From positions 1 to 42,038 of the forward strand of contig JWZX01002188.1 in NCBI GenBank assembly GCA_001275005.1: a stretch of 42,038 nucleotides of DNA, in the 5' to 3' direction. Source of the DNA: Chrysochromulina tobinii. Its lineage: Eukaryota. The notes beneath the pieces were generated by a model. It was not told where the DNA came from. It searched no databases and worked only from the letters and a program-made list of their open reading frames with translations. Positions 3,001 to 24,726 of this stretch are shown one piece after another. The translations under genes were made by a program, and so were the position numbers. Position 1 is the first letter of the stretch, and every line of letters starts with the position of its first letter.

Positions 3001-3046
3001 CGCGCACCGGCTCGAGCCCCTCGTTAAGGTCCTTTTGACGCAGCAT
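1..3046 (-). CDS. HET/TIR-like domain protein with N-terminal hydrophobic segment, RLRGG motif and RRM-like insert; 3' end lies outside the window (start uncertain: in-frame ATGs at 3046, 3130, 3241)
   Basis: Manual translation of the minus frame is open from >=3046 to the window edge, which is why the ORF track lacks it; the + ORFs 44, 923, 1238, 1544 and 2855 are its antisense shadows. Motifs GAFSFGWP..NPDPTG, LFWDFPSLYQ, FKRGLGVMGHIYASAIGTTVL, GRGWCVFE and FTGKGD match the HET-type pattern (SY.W / W.D...Q / M..IY / RGW..E). Confidence 0.75.
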   Translation of the reverse strand, partial: MLRQKDLNEGLEPVREALKAMGKANALKLDDEGEDEKEAAAGGEASKAPAVAHVVHRAAEIAIHILCIWFILRILCIAVLAISARWCIQWMGRASELPASIPPATRRGAFAKRLARRRASRAAKRAAAAAEWAQVDEALAASAFSRLGGSPSVPCSPCSPSARRAALLSHYVEWLRALGRERQRMRQPGCCLRSYLRRRHRKMILRKAQAAVSHSPPSPALAGITTRPAVVTPELKKQSATALAALELRARLARTAHALRQWRAAVDLRVHLRGSPCISVDLRVRHPRVSVVRLRGGMQAAAPDADAAAAAKSSAMSELDVAAADRLIDRLRLRFHLRRNLQLRRHPRHRHRLVELDPEVKRELSALDNDLAEVLESGDIALVRSSWLLAQLALQPDYRIVRRQDLKPVGGISPHLEPEEAKRLLLKGERAIGAFSFGWPISGNPDPTGHRIEALWRALQERSDIEALFWDFPSLYQNSDQSPRTEEQERAFKRGLGVMGHIYASAIGTTVLQLKELPLRPPEYDGKLCLFDLAPGVDGAAIKAALVAYGDIVSCTLGRFPPATVCFTTHAAAQAAKRAAAQLAHISGGVDTLFNERSYDGRHGEAGLDDDEGRGWCVFESAVSGELILRLSVVPRVKAELDKLPPKMLQLRSGCPLGTVDLSAGRLETRVDEVVARIERATFTGKGDKAIVVGLYMKYVDRIAGALQRVLPKMLASDSATVEPSELPPPVDAPAAAALRLAEGQPLLLLSWQGSGAGGGPRFGVVDATGGGVAAAVTGGDDAELAYDRCSQAVLPWRPPAAGWDAAFVGDARALRDLVEPARHLADDAGRMKSVSAVRAVGERSREIADNAARCQTIAHAAREAGGAVQSCVDAAAKLFSNGDPTQLQAALGMVRAAVERLQPVALEAALTSALVSSGALGARRYAAGQPLTVRMASGWRDADVARVGADGLRHLLEFEGSREPPATLTLHPWNHAPRELPHAAYEAMRDWWARSLRANHARIADALTGKRLDA

Positions 3047-3557
3047 TGCACTTGTCTCGGTCGGCTTTTTTGCGCGGCACAAGTTCACCCGCCGGGGGCA
3101 CTCAAATTCAGCATCCAAAGCAGCCGTCATTTGTCTGTTGCCGCGCACGTTGCCGCGCGCGAGCACCGACGAAGTCGAGGTACTCCAGCCAGAGGCGAAG
3201 CGGTCTCGACTCGCCCAAGTTCTCGCTGCGAACGCTGACATGAGGCTGGAAGTCCCAATTTGGAAAGCTTTCATGTTAATACACACAACACGTAAGCAGC
3301 ACACAGACACACCAAGCTGTGAAAACGTGCAGAAGATAGAAATATTTTCCCCATCTACAGTACTCACTACTCGGAGCGACTCGATTGCGCTGCGGCGGGC
3401 TCCAAAGCAATTCCGTTGTCAGCAGCAAGGAGTCGCGGTGTCCGTGTGCTTTCGGACATTTTGGCTTGCGAAATTCCTGTTGCGATGGAGGACCGTCGGG
3501 AGCCACTGAAAGACCTGGATGCTTGAACAGCGCACGTACTAAGTGCCAGTTTGATCC

Positions 3558-5279
3558 TCAGACGAGCATCTTTGGCACCCACCCCCCGACGAAACGCAGG
3601 GTCCGCGGACCGATCGATGAGGTGGTGGCGTTGCGCTGCGTCAGGTGGACTGACGAGCGGAAAGGCGAGCGGACCACTGACTTGCTGATGTTGTCAAAGA
3701 GGAGGCAGTTGCGCACGACGCCGACCCCCGATTTGATGTTCTCAGGGGAGTTGTCCTCCGCGAAGCCACCCCAGGACGCACACTCCATGCCATACGCCAA
3801 GCCCGTCCACGTGTTGACCCCGACGCAGCCGTAGCGCAGCCCAGCGAGGGCGTCCAAGACTGCAGGCTGGTGGTCCTTCTCGGTCTGCGGGTGGAGGAGC
3901 ACGGTGACGCTCAGATTGCCAAAGATGTGCTCGTTGGCAAAGGGCACGGCGTGGCGCAGAAAGGCCTCCGGCTCGGCGGTGCCCTCGATCCTCACGATGG
4001 CGAGCACGGGCGCGAAGGCCTCGCGCGTGAGGGCATATTCGTCGGCGGCGCACGTGGCGCTGTCGAGCTCGATGAGGAGAAAGCCCGTCGGCGCTCCGAA
4101 GCGCGAGGCCGCATCCGCCGCGATGGCGGAGCTGTGAGGAGCTTCAATCTTTTCGGCCGTCGGGTAGGCCTGCTCGAATCGGGCGAATCGCTCGTGCAAG
4201 CCGGGGTAGTACGGGGGAGGCGCGTGGATCTGGCGCAGCGCCTCCTTGAGGCTCGTGACGAATTTCTCGGTTTGGGCCCACTCCTTGGGCAGGAGGAGGG
4301 CCGTGGGCGAGAGGCAGTTGCACGACGCGTTGGCGACCACGCTGTTGGCGAGCTGCCACGCGTGGTGCTCCAAGTCCGCAGTCGTCCACGCGTCGTCGGG
4401 CACCAGAATCCACGGCGTGACACAGCCGAGCTCGGAGCTGAAGGGCTTGGGAAGGAGAGGCTGCTTGGACGCCTTTCGAGTCGCCGTCTCCGGATCGGAC
4501 GGCAGGCCCCACACCAGCGCGTCGTACGTGGCGCCACCTCCAGTCAGGTGCAGGCCGTCGACGTGAGGATGGTGGGCGAGGAGACGGCCGAGGTCACCGC
4601 CGCCCGTGATGGACGCGAAGGCGCCGTACTCCATCACGTCGGCGAAGAGCGTCTCGAGGAATGCGAGCTGGTGCTCGCGGAGCGGATGGTGCTTGAGCAG
4701 CACGGCCTCGCCGTGCACGAAGAGCTTGTCCATCACGTCGACCACTGTGAGGAACTCTTGGTTGCCCGCGCCGAGCACGAGGCAGAGCTTGGGAGACGAC
4801 AATGGATCACAGAGCGTCCGGCCCTGAGTGGGCTCGCCCTTGGTCCATACCTCCGCCGTCCAACCCAGAGCCCCAAGCGGGTTGAGGTACTTGTCTCTCC
4901 ACGTGCGTGGGAACGCTACCGATGCCGTGTGCCCCTGAGGCATCTGCTTGCTCACACAGGTCGGTGGCGTACCACTACTCACCACGGCAGATAGGCTTTC
5001 GATGAGGCGTGTGATCTCGCTACCAATGTTTGCGGCGATGATCATCGTCTCAGCCAGAATCTGCGCGCGTGCGACGCCTGCGCTCGGGTCAAAGCCCTGC
5101 ACTTTGGAAGACTCCGTTGCCCATGCCAGGAAGTCGATAGACTTGGCGCGCTTGCGGAGACGCTGGAGGCACTTCAGGCGACCAGGGACTCCCAGTTCTT
5201 GCCACGTGCGCTTGCCTTCGTTGAGGCGCTCGAGTTTGGCCTCCACCTCGGGAGGCAGGGCAGTGGCGTTGGCGGGCAT
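3558..5279 (-). CDS. Aldehyde dehydrogenase family protein
   Basis: LVLGAGN, VLLKHHP, HLTGGGATYD, catalytic Glu in SSELGCVTP, catalytic Cys region NASCNCLSP, EAFAPVL, LRYGCVGVN. Likely start MPANAT at 5279; no intron needed. Confidence 0.9.
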   Translation of the reverse strand: MPANATALPPEVEAKLERLNEGKRTWQELGVPGRLKCLQRLRKRAKSIDFLAWATESSKVQGFDPSAGVARAQILAETMIIAANIGSEITRLIESLSAVVSSGTPPTCVSKQMPQGHTASVAFPRTWRDKYLNPLGALGWTAEVWTKGEPTQGRTLCDPLSSPKLCLVLGAGNQEFLTVVDVMDKLFVHGEAVLLKHHPLREHQLAFLETLFADVMEYGAFASITGGGDLGRLLAHHPHVDGLHLTGGGATYDALVWGLPSDPETATRKASKQPLLPKPFSSELGCVTPWILVPDDAWTTADLEHHAWQLANSVVANASCNCLSPTALLLPKEWAQTEKFVTSLKEALRQIHAPPPYYPGLHERFARFEQAYPTAEKIEAPHSSAIAADAASRFGAPTGFLLIELDSATCAADEYALTREAFAPVLAIVRIEGTAEPEAFLRHAVPFANEHIFGNLSVTVLLHPQTEKDHQPAVLDALAGLRYGCVGVNTWTGLAYGMECASWGGFAEDNSPENIKSGVGVVRNCLLFDNISKSVVRSPFRSSVHLTQRNATTSSIGPRTLRFVGGWVPKMLV

Positions 5280-5476
5280 GACCAGCAGCGAGGTCAGGTC
5301 CACAAAGGCACCTTTCCAAGAATCTCGTGCTGAACTTTCCGAGAAATGACGAAATCGCACTTTCACTTTCGTGACGAGAAAAAGGATATCATCGTCCGAA
5401 TCGCTCGAATCTTACTAAGCGCAGCGCGCGCGCTTCACGGCAGCTCCGCGAGGCGCAAAACTTGTGCCGCGCAAAC

Positions 5477-8398
5477 ATGTCGCTTCGAGGCTGTCGGCAC
5501 GTGCGCGAGCCGTCGGCCGAGGCGCTGCGCGTCCTGCGATCGCAAGAGGCATGGTCGTGCCTCACGTGCGGCTCCACCGATGGCGTTTGGGTTTGCCTCA
5601 CGTGCGGGCACGTTGGCTGTGGCCGCCGTGCCCAGCACCCCCTGCTTGGCGGCGGCCACGCTCTTCACCATCACTTCGCGTCGGGTGCGAGGCATGCTGT
5701 GTGCATGGATGCGTCCAGCCGCGCGGTGCACTGCCACGCGTGCGATGACTGGGTCATCGCCGAGCCGCCATGGCTCGCGCAGCTGCGGGCCGAGCCTCTT
5801 CCCGAGCCTCTTCCCGAGCCTCTCCCCGCGCCCGAGCCCGATCCACCGTCCTCGTCGTCAACGGTAGGCGTCCAGACGGTCGGCGTCGAGACGGTCGGCA
5901 AGCGTCCGACGCCGCGCGCGGCTGCTGGCCTCAAGAATCTCGGCAACACCTGCTACCTCAACGCGACCCTGCAGGCTCTCTCCCACCTCGAGGGCTTCCG
6001 TGCGTTCTTCCACGACTTCGTCAAGGGAGAGACGCGCACCGGCTCGATGACGCTCGGCGCGGTGGTCGTGGCGCGCCAATCGACGCCCGCGTGGAAGATG
6101 CAGGCCGAGTCGCAATCCCCGGAGCAGACTCTCGCCTCCGCCTTGCACGGCCTGCTGCGAGCATGCTGGAGTGGCCGCTATGCCGTCATCTCGCCGCACG
6201 CGCTCGTGCACGCCGTCTGGCGGCACACCGACCTCTTCGAGTCTCCGCAGCAGCACGATGCCCAGGAGTTCCTGGGCTACCTCCTCGGCCGCCTCTCTGA
6301 CGAGCTCGCCATCCCAGCCTCGAGCGTCACGCCATTCGTCCTCCCGAGCGCCTTCAACATCGCCCCCCCTGGCCCCAGCAGCCCCAGCTGCTGGTCTGTG
6401 AACGTTCACAGCAGCCCCAGCTACTGGTCACTCATCTTTGGCGCGGCGGCCACCGAATCCACCGCCGCCACCCCCGCCACCGCCGCAGCCGCCGCGCCCG
6501 TCACGACGCCCGCGAAGGTTCCATCGCCCGTCACCTCGGATGGAACCTTCCCATCGCCCGTCGCCATCGCTCGTCTGGCTTCGGACGCGTCGCCTCGCTC
6601 GATCGTGAACGAGCTGTTTGGAGTGACCGTGCACCAGTGCGTGCGCTGCGACGGCTGCGGGCGCACGTTTCGTCAATCGCAGACCTCCGACGGCCTCGTC
6701 CTCTCGATGCCCGACACGGCGCCCGACACGGCGCCCGACACGGCGCCCGATCGGGCGAGATCGGGCGAGATGGGATCTGACGAGACGAGATCCGGCGAGA
6801 TGCACGCGGGTGTGGCCTCAGTCTCGCTCCAGGACTGCTTTGCCGAGCTGCTCGCAGAGGAGAGGCTCGAGGGCGCCGAACAGTACCAGTGCGATGACTG
6901 CGGCGTCAAGCGTGACGCGACGCTGACTCGCTCGCTCGGCGCTCTGCCCTTCGCGCTCGTGCTCATGCTCTCCCGCACGCGCTTCTCGATGGCACGGGGA
7001 CAGTACAAGGACGCACGACACGTGGCCTTTCCGGCGGTGCTGGAGCCGGACGCGATGATCGCTGCAATCGAGGACGAGCGCGCCATGAGGGCGCATGAGA
7101 GGCGTATCCAGGCGGCTACGGACGAATCGGACGCGAGGGCCGCTGCGGCACGCAAGGCGGAAGCCGCCATTCTCTCGGCCTCTATGTCCACGGCCGCCGC
7201 TTCAGCAACCAGCGCGGCTGGCGGCACCGGCGGCGCCAGCTGTTCTGGAGGGCCGCGGCTACTCGAGGCCACGTTGCATGTGAGCAGGAGGGGGAGGGTG
7301 GTGCTGCATCTGGTGCCACCGACTCCCGCCGCCGCCGCCGCAGCCGCAGCCGCAGCCGCCGCCGCCGCAGCCACCGCCGCCGCCGCCGCCGCCGCCGCGC
7401 CTCGGCCGCTCACAGGCGTGGTGCAGCGGTTGTCAGTGAATCTGACGCCTCCAGATCCAGATCCAGATCTGGATCTGGATCTGGCGCCTCCGCCGCCACT
7501 CAACAGTGGAGTGACCCACGAGCCACCAGGTGCCTCGATGGTGTTGCGCGCGGCATCGGATCTCGTTGGCTCCGTACCCGCCGCCGCCTCCGCCGCCGCA
7601 GCCGCCTCCGCCTCCGCCTCTGCCTCCGCCTCCGCCTCCCCCTCCCCCTCCGCCTCCGCCTCAGCCTCTGGCCGCCGGTACCGCCTCCGCTCGGTGGTCG
7701 TGCATTCGGGCCAATCGACGCACGTGGGCCATTACTATTGCTACGGCCACTACGCGCCCGGCACGGCGCCAGGCTCGGAGCAGCCTAGTCGAGAGCAGCG
7801 CGGCGCTCGATACGGCGCTTGGCGGCTGTACAATGACGCGCGCGTGTACACCGCGACCGAGCGCTCGGTGCTCGATGCGGAGGCGTTCGTGCTGTGCTAT
7901 GAGCTCTGCGAGACAGGCGACGGCGGCAGGGCCGTCAAGCCGGAGGAGGAGGAGAGAGAGGAGGAGGAGGAGGAGGAGGAGGGGATCGAGGTGTGGCCGA
8001 GGGAGCTCGAGACGGCGCTCAGCTCCGGCGGCCTCGGCCGACGTGTCACAGCCGCGCTCGAGACGGCGCTCAGCTTCGGCGGCCTCGGCCGACGTGTCAC
8101 AGCCGCGCTCGAGACGGCGCTCAGCTTCGGCGGCCTCGGCCGACGTGTCACGGCCGCGCTCGAGACGGCGCTCAGCTTCGGCGGCCTCGGCCGACGTGTC
8201 ACGGCCGGCGACTGGGGCTACCGGCTCATCATCGGCGCCCTCGTCGCCGCCATCGCGGCCCTGGTGGCGCGCAAGGTCCTTGGCCTCACCTCCCTCTCCG
8301 ATGCTGACGCTCTCATCATCGCAGGGCTCGAAGCGGTGCGCAGCGCGGCGAGCCGCGGTGCTCCACCGGCACCTGCAGCACCTGCGCCAATATTGTGA
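5477..8398 (+). CDS. Ubiquitin-specific protease (peptidase C19) with N-terminal ZnF-UBP, USP44/49/USP3-like architecture
   Basis: ZnF-UBP (CLTCG..WVCLTCGHVGCGR..HA..H..CHACDDWV), Cys box GLKNLGNTCYLNATLQAL, QHDAQEFL, His box YRLRSVVVHSG..VGHYYCY, YNDARV. Confidence 0.92.
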   Translation: MSLRGCRHVREPSAEALRVLRSQEAWSCLTCGSTDGVWVCLTCGHVGCGRRAQHPLLGGGHALHHHFASGARHAVCMDASSRAVHCHACDDWVIAEPPWLAQLRAEPLPEPLPEPLPAPEPDPPSSSSTVGVQTVGVETVGKRPTPRAAAGLKNLGNTCYLNATLQALSHLEGFRAFFHDFVKGETRTGSMTLGAVVVARQSTPAWKMQAESQSPEQTLASALHGLLRACWSGRYAVISPHALVHAVWRHTDLFESPQQHDAQEFLGYLLGRLSDELAIPASSVTPFVLPSAFNIAPPGPSSPSCWSVNVHSSPSYWSLIFGAAATESTAATPATAAAAAPVTTPAKVPSPVTSDGTFPSPVAIARLASDASPRSIVNELFGVTVHQCVRCDGCGRTFRQSQTSDGLVLSMPDTAPDTAPDTAPDRARSGEMGSDETRSGEMHAGVASVSLQDCFAELLAEERLEGAEQYQCDDCGVKRDATLTRSLGALPFALVLMLSRTRFSMARGQYKDARHVAFPAVLEPDAMIAAIEDERAMRAHERRIQAATDESDARAAAARKAEAAILSASMSTAAASATSAAGGTGGASCSGGPRLLEATLHVSRRGRVVLHLVPPTPAAAAAAAAAAAAAAATAAAAAAAAPRPLTGVVQRLSVNLTPPDPDPDLDLDLAPPPPLNSGVTHEPPGASMVLRAASDLVGSVPAAASAAAAASASASASASASPSPSASASASGRRYRLRSVVVHSGQSTHVGHYYCYGHYAPGTAPGSEQPSREQRGARYGAWRLYNDARVYTATERSVLDAEAFVLCYELCETGDGGRAVKPEEEEREEEEEEEEGIEVWPRELETALSSGGLGRRVTAALETALSFGGLGRRVTAALETALSFGGLGRRVTAALETALSFGGLGRRVTAGDWGYRLIIGALVAAIAALVARKVLGLTSLSDADALIIAGLEAVRSAASRGAPPAPAAPAPIL
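8006..8207 (+). repeat. 51-nt coding tandem repeat x4 (LETALSFGGLGRRVTAA)
   Basis: Near-identical units ctcgagacggcgctcagct(c/t)cggcggcctcggccgacgtgtcac(a/g)gcc read directly. Confidence 0.95.
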
Positions 8399-13846: not shown

Positions 13847-16800
13847 TCAGACATTATACTCTATCTTCTTCGAGATTTCCTTAAATTTACGCCGTGAATG
13901 TGTTGCCTGCGCCGCGTTGACACCCTTCTTGCGGTCATCGAAATCGTCACTATCAGCCGCCAATCGTAACTGTTGTGTGGACAGCTCAGGTGCGTTGCCC
14001 TTCACCTTCGCCCTTTCAGCCAGAACGCGTTCATAATTGACTTTGGATATGTCACGCACGATCTTGTTGAACGGATTGAAGGTGCCGAACGCCGCCTCGA
14101 TCACCGCCAACAGCCTCTCCTGGTCGTTCGGGTCGAAGGTCTCCGCCTTGCCCGCGTCAAACTTCAGAAGCCCTAGCTCGAAGTCCTTAGAGACCTCCTC
14201 AGCCTTGTCCTTAGAGGTCAGCGACATCACTCGCATTCTATCGTGCACTATCGGTGTCAATTGCACGAAGACAAAGAGCTCAATCACGCACCACAGCCGA
14301 GACGCGTACGTGGGCCCCGCGAGCACGAGGAGCTGCTTGCAGCCCGAGATGAAGACGGGTAGCCCCGCGAGGCTCGCTTGGATGTCTCTCTGGTCCAGGC
14401 ACGCCTTGTCGAGCCAGATGGTGACGCCGACGATGCCGCCATTGCCCTCGTCCGTCACCTTCCCAGCCGCCCCTGCGTGGGTTTGAGATCTCCTCTCCCC
14501 CTCTTCCGCCGCCCACTCTTGCAGGCGATCGAACTTGGCGTCGCCGTCGTCGGACCACGAGTGCGAGACGAAGGCGTCGACTTTGCCGAATCTCGCCAAG
14601 AACGTCTTATCTAACAACTCCTGGGTGGGCCAGCCGGGCGATGATTTCCAGTCATTGGCAACTGCTCCCGCCTTTCGCCCAGCGATCTCTTCGCGTTTTA
14701 GTTCAGCGAGAGGCAGCGCACGGAAGCGCTCGGTTCCCAGCTTGAGCGCCTCGGCGGGGGAGAGTTTGCCGATGAGCGCCGCAAGCGCCGTGGCCTTGCC
14801 TTCGGCCTCCAGCCTTTGCACGCTCGATTCGAGTTCCTTCAGGTTGTCTTCGGAGGACGAGAGCTCAGACTGCTCCTCTTGACTCAGCTTGCCCTTCGTA
14901 TCTTTCAGTCTGAGCTCGTCCACGCGCAAGCGCAACACTGTAGCCTTTCTCCGTGTGGTCGCTGCCATGCCGGACTTGCCGAGCGCGCCGAGCCACGCCA
15001 CGAATCGGCCGCGGTTGGCGGGCGTGAAGACGAGTGCGACGGCGAGGGCGACAGCGCTGTGAATCACATTCTGAATCGCACCAGCCTCCACCGGGTCCGG
15101 GCCATAGAGGTCAACCGACGGGACGTACAGCATCATGCAGAGGAAGACAACCAGATAAAGCAGCGCGACCCCGATGCATACGACGCGGAGCGTGAGCCAC
15201 AGGCGAAGCAGCTGGCTGCGTGCCCCCTTTGTATACTCGAGGGTGAACTCCATCCACGCACTCTGTGCCGCGACGACGGCTCGCTCTTGCGCAGCCTCGA
15301 GCCCGCCCTCGAGCTCGTCCGGCTTTGCGGCTGCCTCTTCGGCATTCCGGCCGCCTCGAAGCTTGAGCTCATCCGGCTTCCCCAAAGAGGCCTGAGTGGT
15401 CCTCAAGTTGTGGTAGTAGACCACACCACCCCGGGTGAAGGCGAGGCGGAACGCGAACCACAGGTTGAGCGGCGGCATTGTCAAGACTCGTATTCTGAAG
15501 GCGCGGCTTTGTATTGCTACCGTAGCTTTGCTTTTTGATGTGCTTCGAATTGCTTTGAATAGGCCTGATTTGCATGGCCTCGAGGCCGCTTTCTCCTCCG
15601 CCGCTTTCTCCTCCGCTGCCATCGCTTCATCCAACAATTTGACTTGCGCTGCGTTTCGACACACGAAGCGCACGCTGACCGTGTCCCAGAAGAGCACACA
15701 GGCTACCGTGGCGATGAGGGCGAGGCCGCTGCTGCGGATGATGTTCAACGCAAACACGGAAAGCCCATCAGTGGACGCAGTGCTCGCGACGCTCCACAAG
15801 GGCACAAGAGCACCATACAGGGCGGCAGCGCTAAAGAAGACGCCCAAGACGCCCAAGATGTGAATGGGGGTGGCGTAGGTGGGGCGCAGCGCGAGCAGAA
15901 TGACGGCCGCTCCCGGCGGCAAGGCAAAGTAGTAAGATACGATGTGGCTCGCGATGGGCGTGAGGTCAACGTCGATGACGTTAGCGAAAATCGGCGGAAT
16001 TGCTCCCAGAGCCAGCAGCATCCAGCCCAACAATACGAGCGTGCCGCTCACGCGCAGCCGGAGCCGATCGGCCTTGGCCACCGCGTCCGTGAGCTTCTCG
16101 CGCGTGCGCTTCTCGGCGGGGAAGGTGGCGGACTTTGCATGCTTACCTTTGAATGAGTCTAAGCTTTTGAAGCCTTTCCACGAGTCGGACAAGACACCTG
16201 CGTCCTGTGCGGGTTCCTTCTTGCGACGGAGGCGGAGGCAGGCGAGGAGGGCGCAGAAGAAGGCGAGAGGAACGAGCCAGGCCGCTGGAATGAGGCCGCC
16301 GTAGAGGACGGCTGACAGCGTGCGCAGGAGCTGCTGCCCTTTCGCAATGTCCGCCTCCATGAACGCGAGGTACTCGGCGGAGGCGGGCGCGCCGAGCTCG
16401 CACAAACACCGATAGCGAAGATAGCAGGGAGAGTCGAACCACCCATTCCGCAGATACTCGCGGCGCTTGGCGGCGCACTGCCGGTTAGCATAGCTCATTT
16501 CGCCTAAATCTCTGAATATCATGGTCCTGTAGAAGTTGCTTGGGTACCCGCTCTGCCAATTGGTAAAGTTGGTCGTCTCGCCCGACGCGCACGTGTCCCA
16601 CCCGCCGCCGGGCTCCACGGCGCCGGCCGACTGGTAGAGCCCGATCCACACATCACCCATGCTGCGTGTGAGGCTCGCAATAAAGTCAGCCTCCGCGGTC
16701 GAGCGGATGCATGCAAGCGTCGCATTCTCACCGCACGCTGCCGCGCACCCCAAGGCGTTGAACCGTCCTGCGGTCACCTTGTAGCACTTTCCGCCCTCGT

Positions 16801-16894
16801 CAAAGCGCGCCCAGCCGCCAGGGCACGTGGCGGAGGCGAGCGCGACGTCTGTGAGCGCGATAAGGAGCACTGAGGCGGGGCGCTTGGCTGCCAT
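13847..16894 (-). CDS. Signal peptide + C-type lectin domain + multi-pass membrane region + C-terminal TIR-like domain (putative receptor, ~1015 aa)
   Basis: MAAKRPASVLLIALTDVALASA signal; lectin CPGGW...CYKV...C...LACI...VWIGL...FTNW...CAA...WFDSPC...CLCE; about 7 hydrophobic helices; TIR motifs DAFVSHSW, IWLDK, LLVLAGPTY, SRLWCVIEL. The ORF-track extension to 17335 looks non-coding. Confidence 0.85.
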   Translation of the reverse strand: MAAKRPASVLLIALTDVALASATCPGGWARFDEGGKCYKVTAGRFNALGCAAACGENATLACIRSTAEADFIASLTRSMGDVWIGLYQSAGAVEPGGGWDTCASGETTNFTNWQSGYPSNFYRTMIFRDLGEMSYANRQCAAKRREYLRNGWFDSPCYLRYRCLCELGAPASAEYLAFMEADIAKGQQLLRTLSAVLYGGLIPAAWLVPLAFFCALLACLRLRRKKEPAQDAGVLSDSWKGFKSLDSFKGKHAKSATFPAEKRTREKLTDAVAKADRLRLRVSGTLVLLGWMLLALGAIPPIFANVIDVDLTPIASHIVSYYFALPPGAAVILLALRPTYATPIHILGVLGVFFSAAALYGALVPLWSVASTASTDGLSVFALNIIRSSGLALIATVACVLFWDTVSVRFVCRNAAQVKLLDEAMAAEEKAAEEKAASRPCKSGLFKAIRSTSKSKATVAIQSRAFRIRVLTMPPLNLWFAFRLAFTRGGVVYYHNLRTTQASLGKPDELKLRGGRNAEEAAAKPDELEGGLEAAQERAVVAAQSAWMEFTLEYTKGARSQLLRLWLTLRVVCIGVALLYLVVFLCMMLYVPSVDLYGPDPVEAGAIQNVIHSAVALAVALVFTPANRGRFVAWLGALGKSGMAATTRRKATVLRLRVDELRLKDTKGKLSQEEQSELSSSEDNLKELESSVQRLEAEGKATALAALIGKLSPAEALKLGTERFRALPLAELKREEIAGRKAGAVANDWKSSPGWPTQELLDKTFLARFGKVDAFVSHSWSDDGDAKFDRLQEWAAEEGERRSQTHAGAAGKVTDEGNGGIVGVTIWLDKACLDQRDIQASLAGLPVFISGCKQLLVLAGPTYASRLWCVIELFVFVQLTPIVHDRMRVMSLTSKDKAEEVSKDFELGLLKFDAGKAETFDPNDQERLLAVIEAAFGTFNPFNKIVRDISKVNYERVLAERAKVKGNAPELSTQQLRLAADSDDFDDRKKGVNAAQATHSRRKFKEISKKIEYNV

Positions 16895-17478
16895 GACAAG
16901 AGCGTTTCGTTCGACTTGACGAAGTTTGAACTTATTTCGACTTACCCCGACAGTACCTGGTGGGGTACTGAACTGAGCATTCGCCTCGTTAGGTACGTTC
17001 GGGTGAGACAAAAGACAAACTTTTCTACAGACTGAACATTTGGTGTAAAAGTGCCGCTTCCCACGAACATGTTTCTGACAAAAGCTCTTGAACGCAGACC
17101 GTAAACGCACTGGGGAAGCATTAGAAGCAGACAGAAAAACGCTCACACAGTCAGTCACAACGGGCTCGCCCTGGCCATGCCCCATACCGGCGATGCGGAT
17201 CTGCGCCAACCGGGAGCGGGGAGGACAGATAGCTCTTAGCTGCCTCCACATGCGTCCCGACACTCGATCGACGTCCCGCCCCGCGCCCCCCGCGCCGGTC
17301 GCGAGAGCGCGTGGTCTTCTCCCGTCCGTTTGCATTCGGATTCGCCGAAGGGGCGATGTTTCTCAACTCTGAAGTCATTCGTGATACAGTCCCATACAGT
17401 TACAGATACAGCTGTGCGTATACAGTGCACCTCGAGCCTCATTCCTCATTGCAGCGGGCGCGCGCATGCCCTCAACGC

Positions 17479-18101
17479 TCAACCGGCCAGCCCTGCGCTC
17501 GCGCGGCCTATGTTGTTCCGGCTCTTCATACGCTCGCCGCCCGTGCCCGCCGCCTTGAGAGCATCGGCGACAAGAAAGGGCGAGGCGCCGGTGAGCGCGG
17601 TAGGTTGGAAGAGCGCGAGTGGCACCTCGAGCGCGGCGCGCACCTGATGAGGGAGGCAATCAAGGCATCATATGTGAGGTCATGAGAGGCCATTCGGTTG
17701 ATGAGCACTTCGAGGGCGGCGCGCAGCGCACGAGCACACGCACGCGCGCGAGCTGCTCGGGCGGCGCGGGCGTCGACAGGAAGATGAGGCCATTGGGCAC
17801 GTCGACCGATCGCACCAGCCCGAGGCCAACGCACTCGTGATCAGACCAGCCGCCGCTGCCGTCGGGCGCCGTCGCGGGCGCTTCTTCGTGCTCGGCCCAG
17901 CCGCCGCCGCTGGGGGGCACCGCCGTCTCCGCGCCTCCAGAAGCGCCCACGACGACGCGGGCGGGAGGCACGAGCAGCCCCACCAGGCTCACGTTGAGCG
18001 CCCGGAGCGTCGTTTTGAGCGCCCGGAGCGTTTGCTCGATGGGCAGAGCGTCGTTTTGAGCGCTCCCCTTGGCGTCAGTGCCGCCTTCCCCCACCCCCTT
18101 C

Positions 18102-18140
<39 letters not shown>

Positions 18141-19600
18141 AGGTAGGCCGAGGGAAGCGCGACGACACGCTCGAGGGCATGCAAGGGCACCGTGTACGGA
18201 GGGGACGCGAGCAGGGCGCGGATCGCCGCCTGCCACGTGCCCGTCTGGTAGGCGAGCACGTCCTTGGGGAGCGCATGCACCTGTGGGGAGGCGAGGGCGC
18301 CGTGGTGAGCACGTGCATGCGGGTAAGGCGAGCACGTCCTTGGGGAGTGCACGCACCGCCGGTGGCAGGGCGCCCAAATAAGCGAGCAGCTGCAGCGAGC
18401 GGCTCTCTGCGGCGTGCGGCGCCGAGAGGGGCGGCAGCGGCGGCATCGGCGGCGGCGAGCCGAACTGTGAATTCACACTCGGCATCGGCGGCGGCGAGCC
18501 GGCCGGCGGCGCGATGGCCGCGAGCGCCGTGCTGAGCGCCGCGAGGCTCGGTAGCGGCGGCAGCCGGAGCACCATCCGCGCCGTGCTGAGCACCGTCTCG
18601 GGCAGCTCGAGCTGGGGCGCCGTGGCGGGCGCGGCGGCGGCGCTGGCGGACGAAGGACCGTCGAGGATGACGATGTGCGTAGGCGCCGTCGCGAGCGCCA
18701 GATCGGCGAGCAGATGCTCGCCGAGCCCCGTCACCCAGCCGCACGTGTTGATCACCAACGGTGCCAGCCGGAGCACGTCGGGCGCCGTGCTGAGCGCCCG
18801 CCGCCGTTCCTCCAGCAGGGACTGGACGCAGCGCACGTATGCAACCGGAGCGTCTCCGGGGGTCGACGCGCCGAGGAAGCGAGCCGCGCGCGCCGGGCGC
18901 ACGTGCGTGTGTGGAGGCCCAAGCAGCGGCTCGCTCACGTCGTGCCAGCTCAGCAGGCCAGCTGGCCCCATCTCGGACTGGCCCGGATCGCATTCAAGCC
19001 AGCCGACACAGCCGACACAGCCGGAGCCCGCGCCGCCGGGCTGAGCGCCGTGTTGAGCGCCATGTTGAGCGTCGTGTTGAGCGTCATGTTGAGCGCCGTG
19101 ATGAGCGCCCCACTCGCGCGCCTCGCTCAGCAGGCGATTGACGAGAAGCCGGCCGAAGGACGACTTGCCCGCATTACGGGCGCCACAGAGCAGCACGACC
19201 GCGCCGTGCTGAGCGCCGTGCTGAGCGCCGTGTTGAGCGCCCGCCGCGCCGACGGAGGCGCCCGCCGCGGCGGACGCGGGCGCCCAATACGGCGCCCGCA
19301 CCGGCCGCGACTCCGAGCGTAACGGCTCGTCCTCGGGCGCCGTGCCGGGCGGCGGCACGCTGAGGGACCCTGCTAGCGTCTGGAGCGCCGCGGCCCACGC
19401 CACGGGGACGAGGGCACCCAGTCCACCCAGTCGTCCCTCGGCGCCGGCGCACGGCACCCCCTTGAGCAGACGAATGCCCAGGCGCGCCTCCTCGACGGAG
19501 CCGTTGTTGCCAGCTGCGGAGGCGGCGCGCCCACGTCCCGGAGCGGAGGGTCTCGGATCGTCGATCGGATCGTCGAGGTCATCCTCGCCGTCCTCGCCGT

Positions 19601-19634
<34 letters not shown>

Positions 19635-19958
19635 ATCCTCCAGCTCCTTTGCTTGCCGCTTTCGCTTACCAGAGTTATGTGCGGTAGCCGCCTCGAACCC
19701 TATGGACTCTGAGAGGCTGCGCAGGAGCACGCGAGCTCCGCAGCTGATTGCCGACGGCGTCTGCAGCACCGCGGTCAAGCCGCCGGCGGGAGAGTGCAAC
19801 GTGAACCAATGCTCGTCCTCGTCGTCGCTCGCGGGTGCGAAGTCATAGCCGAGGATGCGGATGCGCCCCGACAGCACCCGAATGGCCACGTGGCCCACGA
19901 GTGGAGTTGCCTCCAGCGGGTGCACGGTCATCTCCTGGATCTGCGACGTCGCGGCCAT
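17479..19958 (-). CDS. NOL9: Polynucleotide 5'-hydroxyl kinase NOL9/Grc3 (Clp1-like P-loop); exons 19958-18357, 18280-17732, 17643-17479
   Basis: P-loop LLCGARNAGKSSFGRLLVNRLL, ECDPGQSEMGPAG, LVINTCGWVTGLG, C-terminal CVGLGLVRSVD...IFLSTP; the spliced end reads VRAALEVPL...MKSRNNIGR. Confidence 0.88.
17644..17731 (-). other. Spliceosomal intron (GT-AG, phase 0), 88 nt
   Basis: ctc|GTGCGC...GATTGCCTCCCTCATCAG|gtgcgc on the minus strand; same 18-nt 3' end as intron 13128-13374. Confidence 0.82.
18281..18356 (-). other. Spliceosomal intron (GT-AG, phase 0), 76 nt
   Basis: gcg|GTGCGT...CTCCCCACAG|gtgcat; joins ORF 18075-20015 to ORF 17660-18352 in frame. Confidence 0.85.
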
Positions 19959-20103
19959 TCTCCCTCGTGGACGGCCCACGTCGTCGCAATTCCCTCGGTT
20001 CGATGACGTGAACAATCAGAGCTTGCTCAAGTCGACTCTCCGCTTCAAGAAAGAAGTTTCATTCAACGCGCGAAGCCGAGCGCCCAGGGAAGGCTGAAAA
20101 AGA

Positions 20104-23073
20104 ATGGCTGCAAGCCTGGGGCGCGTGCTGGCAGCCGCTTGCCTCCTGACGGCAGCCAACGGACAGGCGATTGGTCAACCGAGCCCACCTTCGTGGCCCG
20201 AAGTATCTTCGGGCGATTCATCGTCGGGCGACGCATCTTCAGGTGACGCATCTTCGGGCGACGCCTCAGGAGACGCATCATCTGGTGACATGTTTTGGAC
20301 TGATCCATCCCCATCACCGTCACCCGGCACATCCGCATCGCCATCACCCGATCCATCGCCACATTCACCTCTGCCGCCGACAGTGCCGCCACCGCCCTCG
20401 CCGCCGCCGCCTTCGCCCTCACCACCTCCTCCCGCCCAACCACCGCCTCCACCGCCACCGCCCTCGCCGCCGCCGCCTTCGCCCTCACCACCTCCTCCCG
20501 CCCAACCACCGCCTCCACCGCCACCACCCTCGCCGCCACCGCCCTCGCCCTCACCACCTCCTCCCGCCCCACCGCCGCCTCCACCGCCGCCGCCTTTTCC
20601 GCCAAGGCTGCCGCCGCCGTCGCCGCCGCCGCCCCGATCCCCGCCTGGCGGCTGCACCGACTCCCGCGCGCTCAACTACCGCGTCTTCGCCGTGGTGGAT
20701 GATGGCACCTGCGTGGGCATCGGTGGCTGCACGGACTCACGCATGGATGCATATGAGCCCGCGGCCACGCACGAGGACGGCTCGTGCCCACCTATCATTC
20801 TAGGCTGTGCGCACTCCACCGCAGAGAACTATCGCTCGCTAGTGACCATCGACGACGGGACCTGCCAGTACACCGGCTGCCTTGACTCCCGCGCTCTCAA
20901 CTTCAACCCGTCGGCCACGTCGAACGCGCCGTGCACGTACCCGGTGCCTGGCTGCATGAACTCCGAAGCCGACAGCTACCACCCAGGCGCCAATGTGCAC
21001 GTGGCTAGCCAGTGCACGTACCTGGGCTGCACCGACGGTCAGGCGCTCAACTTCGAACCAAACGCCACCACGAACGATGGCTCGTGCACGGCGGTTTTCG
21101 CGGGCTGCACGAACCCAAGCGCGTCCAATTACGCAAACGTCGGGTACAACCGTGATTGCGGCTGCTGCCGCTTGCCAGGCTGCGCCGACTCGGCGTCGCC
21201 CAACTACAATGCGAACGCCGCCTTTCACGTCGCCAGCATGTGCGCTGCCGGACGTCGGCAGCTGCATGCATCGGGTAACGCGAGCTGCCTGGACCCGGGA
21301 TCGCTCAACTACGACAGTTTGGGCGCAACCCACATGAATGCGGTCTGCTCGTTCCCTATCTTTGGCTGCACCGAGTCGACGAACCTATACTATGTCGCGG
21401 GCGCCAACACGCACAACCAGTCCATGTGCGCGCCGCCGACCATCTACGGCTGCCTCGCGCCGACGGCGCTCAACTACCAGATGAACGCGACCATCCAACG
21501 CGAGGGCGATTGCGTGTACGCCTTCCCCGGCTGCATGGACCCGACGGCTTACAACTACGGCAGCGAGGCCAATGTGCCCAACGGGCTCTGCACGTACCCT
21601 GTGCTCGGATGCACGATCCCGATCGCGGCCAACTACAATGCATCGGCCACCGCGAGCGATGGCTCGTGCACTTTCCACGTGGTGGGCTGCACGAACACCA
21701 CGGCGCGAAACTACGTGCAGGACGCAACGGTGTCCAGCGAGCAGGCGGTCTCGCTCTCGATGACCCAATTCACGTTGGCGCAGTTGCAGACGGCAGTCTG
21801 CGTCTACGACACGCCTGGGTGCACCGCGCCCGCGGCGGTCAATTACAACTCTCTCGCTACGCTCGACGACGGCTCATGCTTCATGTATTCGCCGCCACCC
21901 TACCCGCCACCGCCCAAAGCACCGCCGTCGCCGCCCCTGTACCCGCCGAATGCGCCGCCTCCGCCGCCCCCTAAGCCACCCTCGCTGCCGCCGTCTCCGC
22001 CTTCTCCAAAGGCACCGCCGCCGCCTCCAACAAGGCCAACCTCGCCGCCACCGAGGCCATCCTCGCCACCACCGACTCCGCCCTCGATGCCTCCGTCGCT
22101 GCGGCCGCCGCCGCCATCTGCGCAGCCGATCGCCGCCTCCGTCACGATGGCGGTCGTCGTGGCCAGCAGCGTGTCCAACTTCACGTCGACGATCCGTATC
22201 GAGCTGCGCACCGCCGTCGCGACAGAGTCGAGCGTGGCCGTGAGTGCTGTCACGCTCGAGGTGACACCCTTGGTCAATGGTGCGGCGAGCGGGCGCCGGA
22301 AGCTTCAAAGCAGCACAGTCGAGCTTACCTTCACGATAGCCGTCACGTCGGCGGCGGCGGCGGCGACGACAGTCGACGCGCTCGCAAGGCGCCTTGCGAA
22401 CGCGACGACGGCAAGTGCGTTCCTTACGACTAGCTCCTACACGGCCACCGTCATCACGATCGCCAGAGTGCCCACCGCGGCCTACCCGCCGCCACCACCG
22501 CTCGCAGGTCGGTGCCTGGAGACGTGCACCCTCTCGGTTCACTACGCCTCGGATGGCGTCTGCGACGATGGCGGCCCCGGAGCCGAGTTTTCTGGCTGTT
22601 CTCTCGGCATGGACTGCACGGACTGCGGCGTTCGGGTGATATTCAGTTCTCCGCCTCAGGCGGACCCGAACGACGGGAGTAGCGCCAGCCTGATGGACCG
22701 TTTCGGTACCATCATCGGGGCGGCCGTCGGCGGAATTGCTGCGCTCGTCATCATACTCTTCGTGCTGGGCGTCACCTGCCGGGCGAGATGTCAAGGGAGC
22801 GAGGATAACGACGCCACCCTCTCGCAAGCACAATGGATGAAAGATGCAGAAGTGCAGCTCAAAGTGCACAAAATCTCTGCTCTGCCAGCTGGTCCTTCTC
22901 CGCAGAAAGAGTCACCTCCATCACGGCCAGCTCGACCTCCTCCGATACATCCTCCACCTACTCGCACAGGCGGAGGCGCTGACTTTGATCCTGAGCTGGT
23001 TCAGGACCAGCGACTGGTACCTGCGATAAACATAATCTCAGAGAATGGACCGCGGAGATTGGTGTTTTTGTGA
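20104..23073 (+). CDS. Type I membrane surface protein with Pro-rich stalks and ~15 Cys repeats (GCxxxxAxNY...DGSC)
   Basis: Signal peptide MAASLGRVLAAACLLTAANG; SP/PPP tracts; repeats at ~20650-21880; Cys module CDDGGPG..C..G.DCTDCG; TM IIGAAVGGIAALVIILFVLGV. Confidence 0.85.
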   Translation: MAASLGRVLAAACLLTAANGQAIGQPSPPSWPEVSSGDSSSGDASSGDASSGDASGDASSGDMFWTDPSPSPSPGTSASPSPDPSPHSPLPPTVPPPPSPPPPSPSPPPPAQPPPPPPPPSPPPPSPSPPPPAQPPPPPPPPSPPPPSPSPPPPAPPPPPPPPPFPPRLPPPSPPPPRSPPGGCTDSRALNYRVFAVVDDGTCVGIGGCTDSRMDAYEPAATHEDGSCPPIILGCAHSTAENYRSLVTIDDGTCQYTGCLDSRALNFNPSATSNAPCTYPVPGCMNSEADSYHPGANVHVASQCTYLGCTDGQALNFEPNATTNDGSCTAVFAGCTNPSASNYANVGYNRDCGCCRLPGCADSASPNYNANAAFHVASMCAAGRRQLHASGNASCLDPGSLNYDSLGATHMNAVCSFPIFGCTESTNLYYVAGANTHNQSMCAPPTIYGCLAPTALNYQMNATIQREGDCVYAFPGCMDPTAYNYGSEANVPNGLCTYPVLGCTIPIAANYNASATASDGSCTFHVVGCTNTTARNYVQDATVSSEQAVSLSMTQFTLAQLQTAVCVYDTPGCTAPAAVNYNSLATLDDGSCFMYSPPPYPPPPKAPPSPPLYPPNAPPPPPPKPPSLPPSPPSPKAPPPPPTRPTSPPPRPSSPPPTPPSMPPSLRPPPPSAQPIAASVTMAVVVASSVSNFTSTIRIELRTAVATESSVAVSAVTLEVTPLVNGAASGRRKLQSSTVELTFTIAVTSAAAAATTVDALARRLANATTASAFLTTSSYTATVITIARVPTAAYPPPPPLAGRCLETCTLSVHYASDGVCDDGGPGAEFSGCSLGMDCTDCGVRVIFSSPPQADPNDGSSASLMDRFGTIIGAAVGGIAALVIILFVLGVTCRARCQGSEDNDATLSQAQWMKDAEVQLKVHKISALPAGPSPQKESPPSRPARPPPIHPPPTRTGGGADFDPELVQDQRLVPAINIISENGPRRLVFL

Positions 23074-23361
23074 GTTGCTCCCGGACCCGGTAGAGGGTCC
23101 GGCGCGTTCGCAGCCAATGGTGATAATTCGACACCCAAGACACCGGACCGGCGTATGCAGTGGACAGGGCGACTGGCCCTCTGCCGTTTCACACAGAGCG
23201 TCGGTATCGGTGTGAAAATGTAAAATCACAGCGCTGGGGAACCGTGACGAAACTGACAGCTGAATGTGAAGTCGTTCACCAGAGCGTTCAAAAGCCTCCA
23301 CGCTTGCTTGCCCTCGCAGCTGCCTCCGCGTCATCCTCACTCATAAGTTTGCTGGTCAAGC

Positions 23362-24726
23362 ATGGCTTTGAAGCATACATTTACAGTGGGCTCACCGCTG
23401 TCAACACCACGCACTCCGGAGCGGCGCCTACTCCTCACAGTGAGCTCACCGCGCGACAGCGGCGTGCGTCAGACAGTGCGAGGGGCGGCGAATGAACTGA
23501 TGGCCGCGCTGCGCAAGACGACGGCCATGGTCGACACGTCGACGCTGACTGTTGATGAGATGCTTCAGCTGGGCGCGCGTGCCATCCTCGGCTTGCACGA
23601 GGAGCTGGCTCAGCAGCGCATGGATGCTGAACAGCTACGCGAGGAGGTCAATGCGGCCTATCGAGCGTCAGCTGCCACTCAAGCTCGAGACGCCCTGTCT
23701 GCGCGCCATGCAGTCGAGGAGTCGGAGGCGCGCGCGGCTGCGGTACGAGAGGCGACCCAGGCCCGCGAGCGCGAAGCCCTGAGCACCGTGCAACAGTTGA
23801 GGCACGCGCTTGAGCGGAGCGAGCGGGATCAACAGGAGATGCTTCGAGCCGTCGATCGAACGGCCGCGCACGCACGGCTGATGGAGCAGAAGTTCGACAA
23901 GGCGCGCGCGGCCGCCGCACGCATCCTGAAGGCGCTCCCTCCGTCGGCGGCCGAGGCGGCGCGCGAGGCAGAGCAGCTCTCGAAGGTTGCTGCAGGTGAG
24001 CAGATGCATGAGCCGGAGGACGTTGACGTGATGCTCGCGCGCGCCCTCGAGAGGGCGATGCGCCTCGCGGAGAAGACCGTGGCGTCGACGGCCGAGGCGG
24101 CCATCCTTCGATCCGAGACGGAGGCCGAGCGCGCACGCTACGCGAGCGGCCGGCAGCGCGAGAAGCTGCTGGTCGAGCAGCTCCAGCTAGCTGACTCTGA
24201 GAGGCAGGCCCTGCGGCTCGAGTGCATCGAGGCACATGCGGCGCGGGAGGCGGCGGATCAGACAGCGGAGGAGGCAACGAGGCGCTTCCAGGAGATGCTG
24301 GTGATGCAGCGGAACGGCTCGCTTCCTCCGCGACCGCGCTCGCCGCTGCTGCGCCCCCCGAGCCCCCCGAGCTTGCGTGATGTGGGGACCTCGATTGGCT
24401 CAATGTCCTCTTCGCCGCGCTGGGGCGTCGCAGACGCGATCGCCTCCTTGAATGCGCCGCGGACGCCGGCATCGTCACCTCGGAGCTTTGCGGCCGGTGC
24501 CCCGCAGGCAGGCACCTCACTCTTGCTCCCGCAACCGATGCGCACGTCCCCTGGGGCAGGGCACGCTTCATCGACGTGTTCACAGCTCGTGCCGGCCACG
24601 CCCTTGTTCCTGACGGGCAGTACGCAGCTGCCTGGGACGGACGCGGCCGCGGACGCGCTGAGCACTCTCGAGCGGGCGGTGCTCGAGACGGCCAAGTTCA
24701 CAGCGCTGCTTGGGCGCGGCACATGA
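23362..24726 (+). CDS. Coiled-coil protein of unknown function
   Basis: 454-aa ORF with long Ala/Glu/Arg heptad-like helices and a Ser/Pro-rich tail. Confidence 0.7.
   Translation: MALKHTFTVGSPLSTPRTPERRLLLTVSSPRDSGVRQTVRGAANELMAALRKTTAMVDTSTLTVDEMLQLGARAILGLHEELAQQRMDAEQLREEVNAAYRASAATQARDALSARHAVEESEARAAAVREATQAREREALSTVQQLRHALERSERDQQEMLRAVDRTAAHARLMEQKFDKARAAAARILKALPPSAAEAAREAEQLSKVAAGEQMHEPEDVDVMLARALERAMRLAEKTVASTAEAAILRSETEAERARYASGRQREKLLVEQLQLADSERQALRLECIEAHAAREAADQTAEEATRRFQEMLVMQRNGSLPPRPRSPLLRPPSPPSLRDVGTSIGSMSSSPRWGVADAIASLNAPRTPASSPRSFAAGAPQAGTSLLLPQPMRTSPGAGHASSTCSQLVPATPLFLTGSTQLPGTDAAADALSTLERAVLETAKFTALLGRGT

Follow-up and report, generated by a model that had tools for sequence, protein, structure and literature searches.

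The 42,038-nucleotide contig JWZX01002188.1 of the haptophyte Chrysochromulina tobinii, analyzed here over its whole length (the window), carries on its minus strand an intron-free gene for a 1015-residue protein, P0001, which is probably a variant of a transmembrane TIR receptor. A C-type lectin fold is followed in a single chain by a helical membrane part and a TIR-fold domain; this architecture is sound, as is the predicted topology. The combination of lectin, core and TIR is not a product of chance. A search with the TIR region gave 83 homologues; both membrane blocks are also present in 77 of them, and 51 combine the lectin with the membrane core and the TIR in a single polypeptide. The features of the gene and its product are listed below (TM, transmembrane helix).

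13847..16894, minus strand: single-exon gene of P0001, 1015 residues (open reading frame; same in loci L001 and L002; RNA contigs without intron joint)
16823..16894, minus strand: predicted signal peptide, residues 1-24 (hydropathy peak at residues 6-24, 16879-16823, after MAAKR)
16397..16825, minus strand: C-type lectin-like domain, residues 24-166 (Lectin_C, WIGL, 10 cysteines, sequons N57 and N109)
16238..16294, minus strand: TM1, ectodomain anchor helix (hydropathy; missing in ectodomain-less relatives)
16229..16561, minus strand: segment near-identical to two paralogs, residues 112-222, distal lectin and TM1 (paralogs otherwise about 20% diverged)
15026..16039, minus strand: six-helix membrane core TM2-TM7, residues 286-623 (hydropathy, model, family alignment)
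15374..15478, minus strand: degenerate WW-like insert in the TM5-TM6 loop (Pfam WW, E 0.19)
14798..14974, minus strand: charged helical insert, lineage-specific, residues 641-699 (about 5% occupancy of residues 651-690 in the family alignment)
14585..14797, minus strand: conserved pre-TIR subdomain, residues 700-770 (AlphaFold model, family alignment)
14045..14584, minus strand: TIR-fold domain, residues 771-950, with FVSHSW, WLD and RLWCVIE (AlphaFold, Foldseek, VIA, Atlas)
14279..14281, minus strand: Glu872, putative catalytic residue (family conservation, weak SNC1 alignment)

Reading frame and transcripts

A first-pass annotation, made from the letters of the window alone, had placed a lectin, hydrophobic helices and a TIR-like domain in one open reading frame (ORF) behind a signal peptide. 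This was borne out, the signal peptide being predicted from the N-terminal hydrophobic segment. The ORF at 13847-17362 is uninterrupted over 1171 codons, its methionine at 16894 opens the 1015-residue protein, and the gene sequence is identical in loci L001 and L002. Of 19 sequencing runs, 14 are RNA, and four of the 19 were examined for contigs over the gene. In these four the contigs cover the gene piecewise and contain no intron joints within it, spliced joints being present in its neighbours. A 777-base contig from run X1 bridges the lectin, TM1 and the next loop with zero differences; no single contig reaching from lectin to TIR was present among the four runs. The bin 17175-17341 had zero cover in all four and is not taken as evidence. 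These data suggest that the gene is transcribed.

The 90% cluster of P0001 includes one Chrysochromulina parva protein. The public gene model for the P0001 locus starts at M473 (543 residues) and that of C. parva at M179 (837 residues), so both publicly named models in the cluster lack the signal peptide and lectin.

Membrane core and topology

Seven hydrophobic peaks start at residues 201, 286, 318, 346, 390, 571 and 605, and the AlphaFold model of residues 170-650 has seven long helices (predicted local distance difference test, pLDDT, 78). Across 100-127 family sequences per helix, mean lysine plus arginine counts before/after TM1 to TM7 were 1.3/3.2, 2.9/0.4, 0.4/1.8, 1.1/0.5, 0.6/1.9, 2.7/0.6 and 0.7/3.0. 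P0001 has only two N-glycosylation sequons, N57 and N109, both inside the lectin. The TM5-TM6 loop holds EF-hands in P0006 and P0008 and a WW domain in the paralog L005b (29.3 bits, cut-off 26.9; one of four stretches tested passed). Because of the charge alternation, the position of the sequons and the modules in this inner loop, the lectin is predicted to lie outside and the TIR inside, as had first been proposed from the odd number of helices. An internal duplication had also been considered for the TM5-TM6 insert and was dropped once the insert scored as WW.

The initial description of a roughly seven-helix receptor holds for the number of hydrophobic helices and not for a single seven-helix core. 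The region preceding the TIR in ectodomain-less proteins is homologous to TM2-TM7 (55 versus 81 sequences; HHalign 93.9%, E 1.5e-7), the controls giving 0.5% for the reversed alignment and at most 0.3% for five column shuffles. Ectodomain-less relatives whose start is present have no helix upstream of the core. Since the core is homologous in these proteins, the seven helices are to be read as 1+6, an anchor plus a six-helix core, and the unit as six-helix core, pre-TIR subdomain and TIR. In P0126 this unit occurs twice in tandem in one chain. The core may be the real switch, because it is found without an ectodomain in other protists. Its conserved motifs face the cytoplasm: R-x-R before TM2, P-T-D after TM3, PRxxLxRLWxxxR before TM6 and R after TM7. 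At residue 340 (15874-15876), in the LRPTD motif after TM3, P0001 carries Tyr in place of the Asp found in 82% of the family alignment.

Foldseek gave no significant match of the membrane core in the PDB (best E 0.62, with a 481-residue model that exceeds the size advised by the tool). The best VIA match (Z 9.3 across 114 residues) was to generic helical bundles, and Atlas returned just unnamed haptophyte clusters, all below 0.9. Such a lack of matches for a predicted model does not show a new fold.

The TIR domain

The first reading had drawn a TIR-like domain at about 14080-14580 from four motifs. Their positions were confirmed (DAFVSHSW at 14578, IWLDK at 14419, LLVLAGPTY at 14332 and WCVIEL at 14293), and the predicted fold is matched best by TIRs. 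The AlphaFold model of residues 691-961 has a pLDDT of 87. In Foldseek the best 10 matches of the TIR-region model were all plant TIR structures (best E 3.6e-3), and the best 14 VIA matches were all TIRs, headed by the MyD88 TIR (Z 8.2, root-mean-square deviation, rmsd, 3.5 over 121 aligned residues), with SpbK at 7.5, RPP1 at 7.5 and ThsB at 7.1. Atlas matched the region to haptophyte clusters named TIR (0.96, first match) and HET (0.95). Judged by these models, a TIR fold for the C-terminus is well supported.

The TIR is the most conserved region of the family, with a mean pairwise identity of 0.52 versus 0.35 for the lectin and 0.25-0.30 for the membrane part. The glutamate of WCxxE is the catalytic residue in plant TIRs. 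The first-pass annotation had pointed to this residue; it is present as Glu872, and 218 of the 225 family proteins retain RxWCxxE alongside near-invariant F-x-S-H-S-W-x-D, W-x-D and Glu, a conservation that is inflated because the family set was gathered through its TIR. The RLWCxxE of the family profile aligned weakly with WCLNE of the SNC1 TIR (E 0.41). NAD+ catalysis by P0001 is therefore plausible as far as sequence can suggest it. Eukaryote-only TIR clades that are uncharacterised have been reported (PMC13142454).

The lectin domain

The lectin placed at about 16340-16830 by the first-pass annotation was recovered by Pfam as Lectin_C over residues 53-166 (28.3 bits, cut-off 22.6). The WIGL core at residue 83 and the disulfide cysteine pattern (10 Cys) are present, and solved C-type lectin-like domains were matched by the lectin family profile with E values as low as 1e-13 for a single domain. 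The C-type lectin fold is, on these sequence grounds, real.

Range of the family and alternative ectodomains

Against the full-length profile, at most 2,044 representatives (50% identity) were found at E<=1e-30, some of which are lectin-only proteins. The family set comprised 225 proteins in which the core could be located and a single full TIR was present. Their ectodomains are lectin in 75, absent (no TM1) in 57, some of which are truncated gene calls, partial in 58, a short leader in 25, other in five, and, as labelled by hand, leucine-rich repeats (LRR) in three (P0038, P0144 and P0185) and EF-hands in two. The early suggestion to look for relatives with swapped ectodomains is borne out by LRR, EF-hand and other ectodomains on the same core and TIR. 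Six-helix core plus TIR without an ectodomain occurs in dinoflagellates and Parmales; a TIR-only profile found such proteins in Symbiodinium, Prorocentrum, Kryptoperidinium and Triparma strigata, some of these names coming from incomplete labels. P0048 (1571 residues) has an unrelated long ectodomain and, by eye, a second HET/TIR-like plus LRR-like region after its TIR.

A FastTree phylogeny of the TIR was built from 145 of the 225 proteins, 80 partial or short rows being left out. A lectin-rich clade of 68 rows (support 99) contains two of the three LRR, both EF-hand and four of the five other ectodomains. The three LRR rows require three changes on this tree, two of them forced by strong branches, and the named dinoflagellate rows fall within a 25-row group without lectin. 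Gain as opposed to loss of ectodomains is inferential, because the tree is unrooted.

Outside eukaryotes, 15 pattern matches in prokaryote genomes (GTDB) and 37 in viral contigs yielded no confirmed relative. BFVD gave nothing at E<=0.001, its best row being a Tetraselmis virus TIR at E 0.17.

Exchange between paralogs

Locus L005 holds two tandem paralogs, L005a and L005b (L005:2-2815 and 3277-6975), which have the same lectin as far as it was aligned, whereas synonymous sites of their TIRs differ by about 10%. Compared with this pair, the P0001 gene has a proportion of synonymous differences (pS) of 0.02-0.05 over residues 112-222 and 0.19-0.20 in TM2-5 and the TIR. Over residues 112-160 there are eight non-synonymous changes and one synonymous change, and the differences cluster in a loop at residues 125-134. 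P0004 and P0005 likewise differ at 7 of 147 lectin residues, and at 40/180 and 46/160 in the TIR. Such a pattern suggests that paralogs have recently exchanged the sensing segment, although assembling mixed samples can produce part of it artificially. The data do not show positive selection, the non-synonymous proportion (pN) being below pS in the lectin of distant paralogs.

At L004, 14 of the 15 differences in 12.4 kb lie within one 270-bp tract. A hypervariable allele was considered here and rejected, since all 14 match the L005 paralogs; L004 may have arisen by conversion of an allele or as a chimera of the assembly, and is for that reason not counted as independent.

Virus-responsive relatives in Gephyrocapsa huxleyi

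P0069 matches P0001 at E 1.8e-28 with the same order of lectin, core and TIR. Its cluster contains EMIHUDRAFT_471377, the annotation of the G. huxleyi transcript cogent2300_i1; by eye, this transcript (2,669 nt) starts with the P0069 N-terminus and also lists the P0069 TIR. Shaler et al. 2025 gave 15 virus-responsive G. huxleyi TIR genes in Table S9 (PMC12489294), four of which have the family motifs by eye, all in infection clusters: three are up at 0.5 h, one is in cluster 3 and the resistance cluster contains none of them. The log2 fold change (log2FC) 0.5 h after virus addition was 2.0 for cogent2300_i1 (adjusted P, padj, 0.049), 1.9 for cogent4121_i1 (padj 0.011) and 4.7 for 373cFLNC_57018782 (padj 0.004). 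A further candidate, 373c_1032, annotated Lectin_C|HET, was up at day 2 (log2FC 2.5, padj 0.024; PMC12489294). The link to viral infection suggested in the first-pass annotation is in this way supported indirectly, through relatives and not through the P0001 gene itself.

Most of the other Table S9 TIR genes form a second group, distinct from the P0001 family and marked by FLSHxWxxGQDQ; their ectodomains are EGF-like or periplasmic-binding, and the number of TM helices ranges from 0 to 8 (PMC12489294).

Comparison with known systems

Plant TNL TIRs, SARM1 and Thoeris ThsB are soluble or peripherally anchored. They share the predicted fold and WCxxE with the P0001 TIR, to which they are 10-18% identical. 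Toll-like and IL-1 receptors resemble P0001 in having the ectodomain outside and the TIR inside, and P0038, P0144 and P0185 even carry LRR; they differ in their single TM helix, whereas the P0001 family combines seven helices and a lectin fold with a TIR that is divergent but keeps its Glu near-invariant. The LRR ectodomain and single TM that define a Toll-like receptor are both absent from P0001. By analogy, it would work like a Toll-type receptor joined to a plant- or bacterial-type enzymatic TIR, yet it is not a Toll-like receptor.

With G protein-coupled receptors (GPCRs) and GPCR-enzyme fusions P0001 shares seven helices, an outer N-terminus and inner C-terminus, a large TM5-TM6 loop and a helix after TM7. 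There is, however, no significant structural match to the core (the Foldseek minimum given above, with rmsd above 25 for GPCR rows), and TM1 is dispensable in P0001 relatives, at odds with a seven-helix fold. As the membrane model is without a significant PDB match, kinship with GPCRs is unsupported. Fungal HET (PF06985) is found in cytosolic nucleotide-binding LRR proteins, whereas the P0001-family domain sits on a membrane core; among 51 family TIRs searched at E<=0.1, TIR_2 matched in 21, and HET, weakly and below the cut-off, in 13. HET is related to TIR (PMC4986451, PMC9153377), and haptophyte HET homologues exist (PMC4986451).

Multi-pass TIR proteins of G. huxleyi in PMC12489294, cogent2300_i1 among them, belong to the same family as P0001; they have several TM helices followed by a TIR with the conserved Glu, and a receptor-like role was proposed for them. 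In the accessible parts of that source the main text has no lectin fusion ("lectin" occurs once, in a reference), the supplements give lectin as a top-hit label and 5-7 helices, and the family, its 1+6 build, ectodomain swapping and a range beyond G. huxleyi are not described. The literature searched, which lacked most subscription papers, contained no account of a lectin-multipass-TIR family and none of the six-helix core; supplements of two preprints may nevertheless include members. Apart from members glimpsed in one paper, the family appears to be undescribed, as do its 1+6 build, range and ectodomain exchange.

Possible function

For P0001 we infer catalysis, activation by clustering and a role in defence. 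The lectin-fold domain, predicted to lie outside and joined by the anchor helix to the six-helix core, would meet a ligand; the core would relay binding or clustering to the cytoplasmic TIR, which would cleave NAD+ into an alarm signal or deplete NAD+. Contact with a virus or other cell could in this manner give rise to an NAD-derived alarm signal, and the family would form a repertoire that retains the core-TIR module and varies by swapping or conversion of ectodomains among paralogs. The reading of P0001 as a receptor in defence whose output is NAD+ cleavage we consider about as likely to be right as wrong.

A number of observations weigh against it. Pfam TIR, TIR_2 and HET gave nothing for P0001 at E 0.1, so that of the profiles first suggested Lectin_C matched and TIR/TIR_2 did not; phmmer found no match to its TIR region in the PDB, and the similarity to TIRs is remote. 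The motif conservation is inflated as described, and a conserved Glu is no guarantee of activity, TLR2, IL-1R9 and IL-1R10 being inactive according to a preprint. Canonical Ca2+-dependent sugar binding requires EPN or QPD plus WND (PMC7618208). P0001 has YPS and WFD at these positions, and the canonical triplets are rare among 95 lectin-bearing members (QPD in 9, EPN in 8, hence either in 17, and WND in 1; WxD is common). Because these motifs are absent, the glycan triggering claimed in the first-pass annotation is doubtful and unsupported for P0001; its ligand is probably not a simple Ca2+-bound monosaccharide and may be a protein, a lipid or a non-canonically bound glycan. The 57 of 225 relatives without an ectodomain imply that the core works without one, and the conversion signal derives from metagenome assemblies. 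The induction in G. huxleyi was modest and transient, lay within a 548-gene early signalling cluster, was missing in recovered cells and was inconsistent in resistant strains (-7.2, 3.1, 1.8 and 1.0 for cogent2300_i1; PMC12489294). The induced relative is about 32% identical to P0001 over the TIR region and is not the P0001 gene itself. In the parts of PMC12489294 examined no virus-free lysate control was found.

The same receptor-enzyme could serve non-immune contact sensing, in prey capture, mating or adhesion; its TIR would then make cyclic ADP-ribose (cADPR), a second messenger that mobilises Ca2+. Chrysochromulina grazes as a mixotroph, transcripts were found in ordinary mixed-culture and freshwater RNA runs, and a coupling to Ca2+ and to regulation is suggested by the EF-hands and WW domain inserted in the cytoplasmic loop. 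Products of the cADPR type, made without NAD+ depletion, come from many eukaryotic TIRs that have this Glu (bioRxiv 10.64898/2026.04.20.719644). The virus induction of relatives in G. huxleyi (PMC12489294) argues in the other direction, as do paralog exchange, loop divergence and LRR ectodomains, which are typical of conflict genes, and we regard contact sensing as unlikely, while giving it more room than the two explanations that follow.

It is rather improbable that the six-helix core itself is the sensor, or a channel, responding to membrane damage, lipid or ions and gating the TIR, with the lectin merely targeting or anchoring the protein. The ectodomain-less proteins that lack TM1, including the named dinoflagellate and Triparma ones, the homology of the core between the two groups and the doubled unit of P0126 would all fit; the conserved core residues, however, all face the cytoplasm, with nothing among them to indicate a pore or a binding site on the outside, and ectodomain-less forms could pair with separate sensors where they are not truncated gene calls. 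Slightly less probable still is that the TIR/HET-like domain has no enzymatic activity and serves, like the TIRs of Toll-like receptors, as an adaptor for downstream partners to be recruited. MyD88, IL-18R beta and TIRAP are among the best VIA matches, weak HET matches occur in the 13 of 51 members, and an adaptor function has been put forward for HET (PMC4986451). The Z values of adaptor and enzyme TIRs nevertheless lie within about 1 unit of each other, and the near-invariant motifs of the family suit a conserved pocket better than a docking surface.

Should P0001 be a defence receptor, it could represent an unrecognised class of eukaryotic immune receptor-enzymes in which a six-helix bundle, possibly of a new fold, gates an NAD+-cleaving TIR. 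This class would be common to haptophytes, dinoflagellates and Parmales, and the haptophyte repertoire, diversified through lectin, LRR and other ectodomains, would form a pattern-recognition arm against giant viruses. We offer this wider proposal tentatively and would sooner expect it to fail than to hold. The family may bear on the way in which bloom-forming algae sense giant viruses and other attackers; TIR-based antiviral systems were stated not to have been described previously in microalgae (PMC12489294). P0001 provides a defined candidate in which one intron-free gene would encode sensor and enzyme in a single chain, with a single target residue (E872) and natural ectodomain variants, from a large family that is mostly invisible to Pfam and whose public models at this locus drop the lectin.

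Neighbouring genes

No second member of the family was found in the window. PADLOC matched none of four proteins, and NCBIfam gave nothing above its cut-off among five. The neighbours of the P0001 gene are ordinary eukaryotic genes of similar GC content at third codon positions (0.76 in P0001), an unnamed helical ORF flanking it on one side and a NOL9/CLP1-like gene on the other. The latter, encoding an RNA kinase (17485-20015, minus strand), ends about 600 bp upstream of the P0001 gene, and a spliced joint at 17637-17726 was seen there in two RNA runs. Long ORFs without a Pfam family above the cut-off lie at 20098-23073 (plus), 36351-38414 (minus), 23347-24726 (plus) and 2-3418 (minus).

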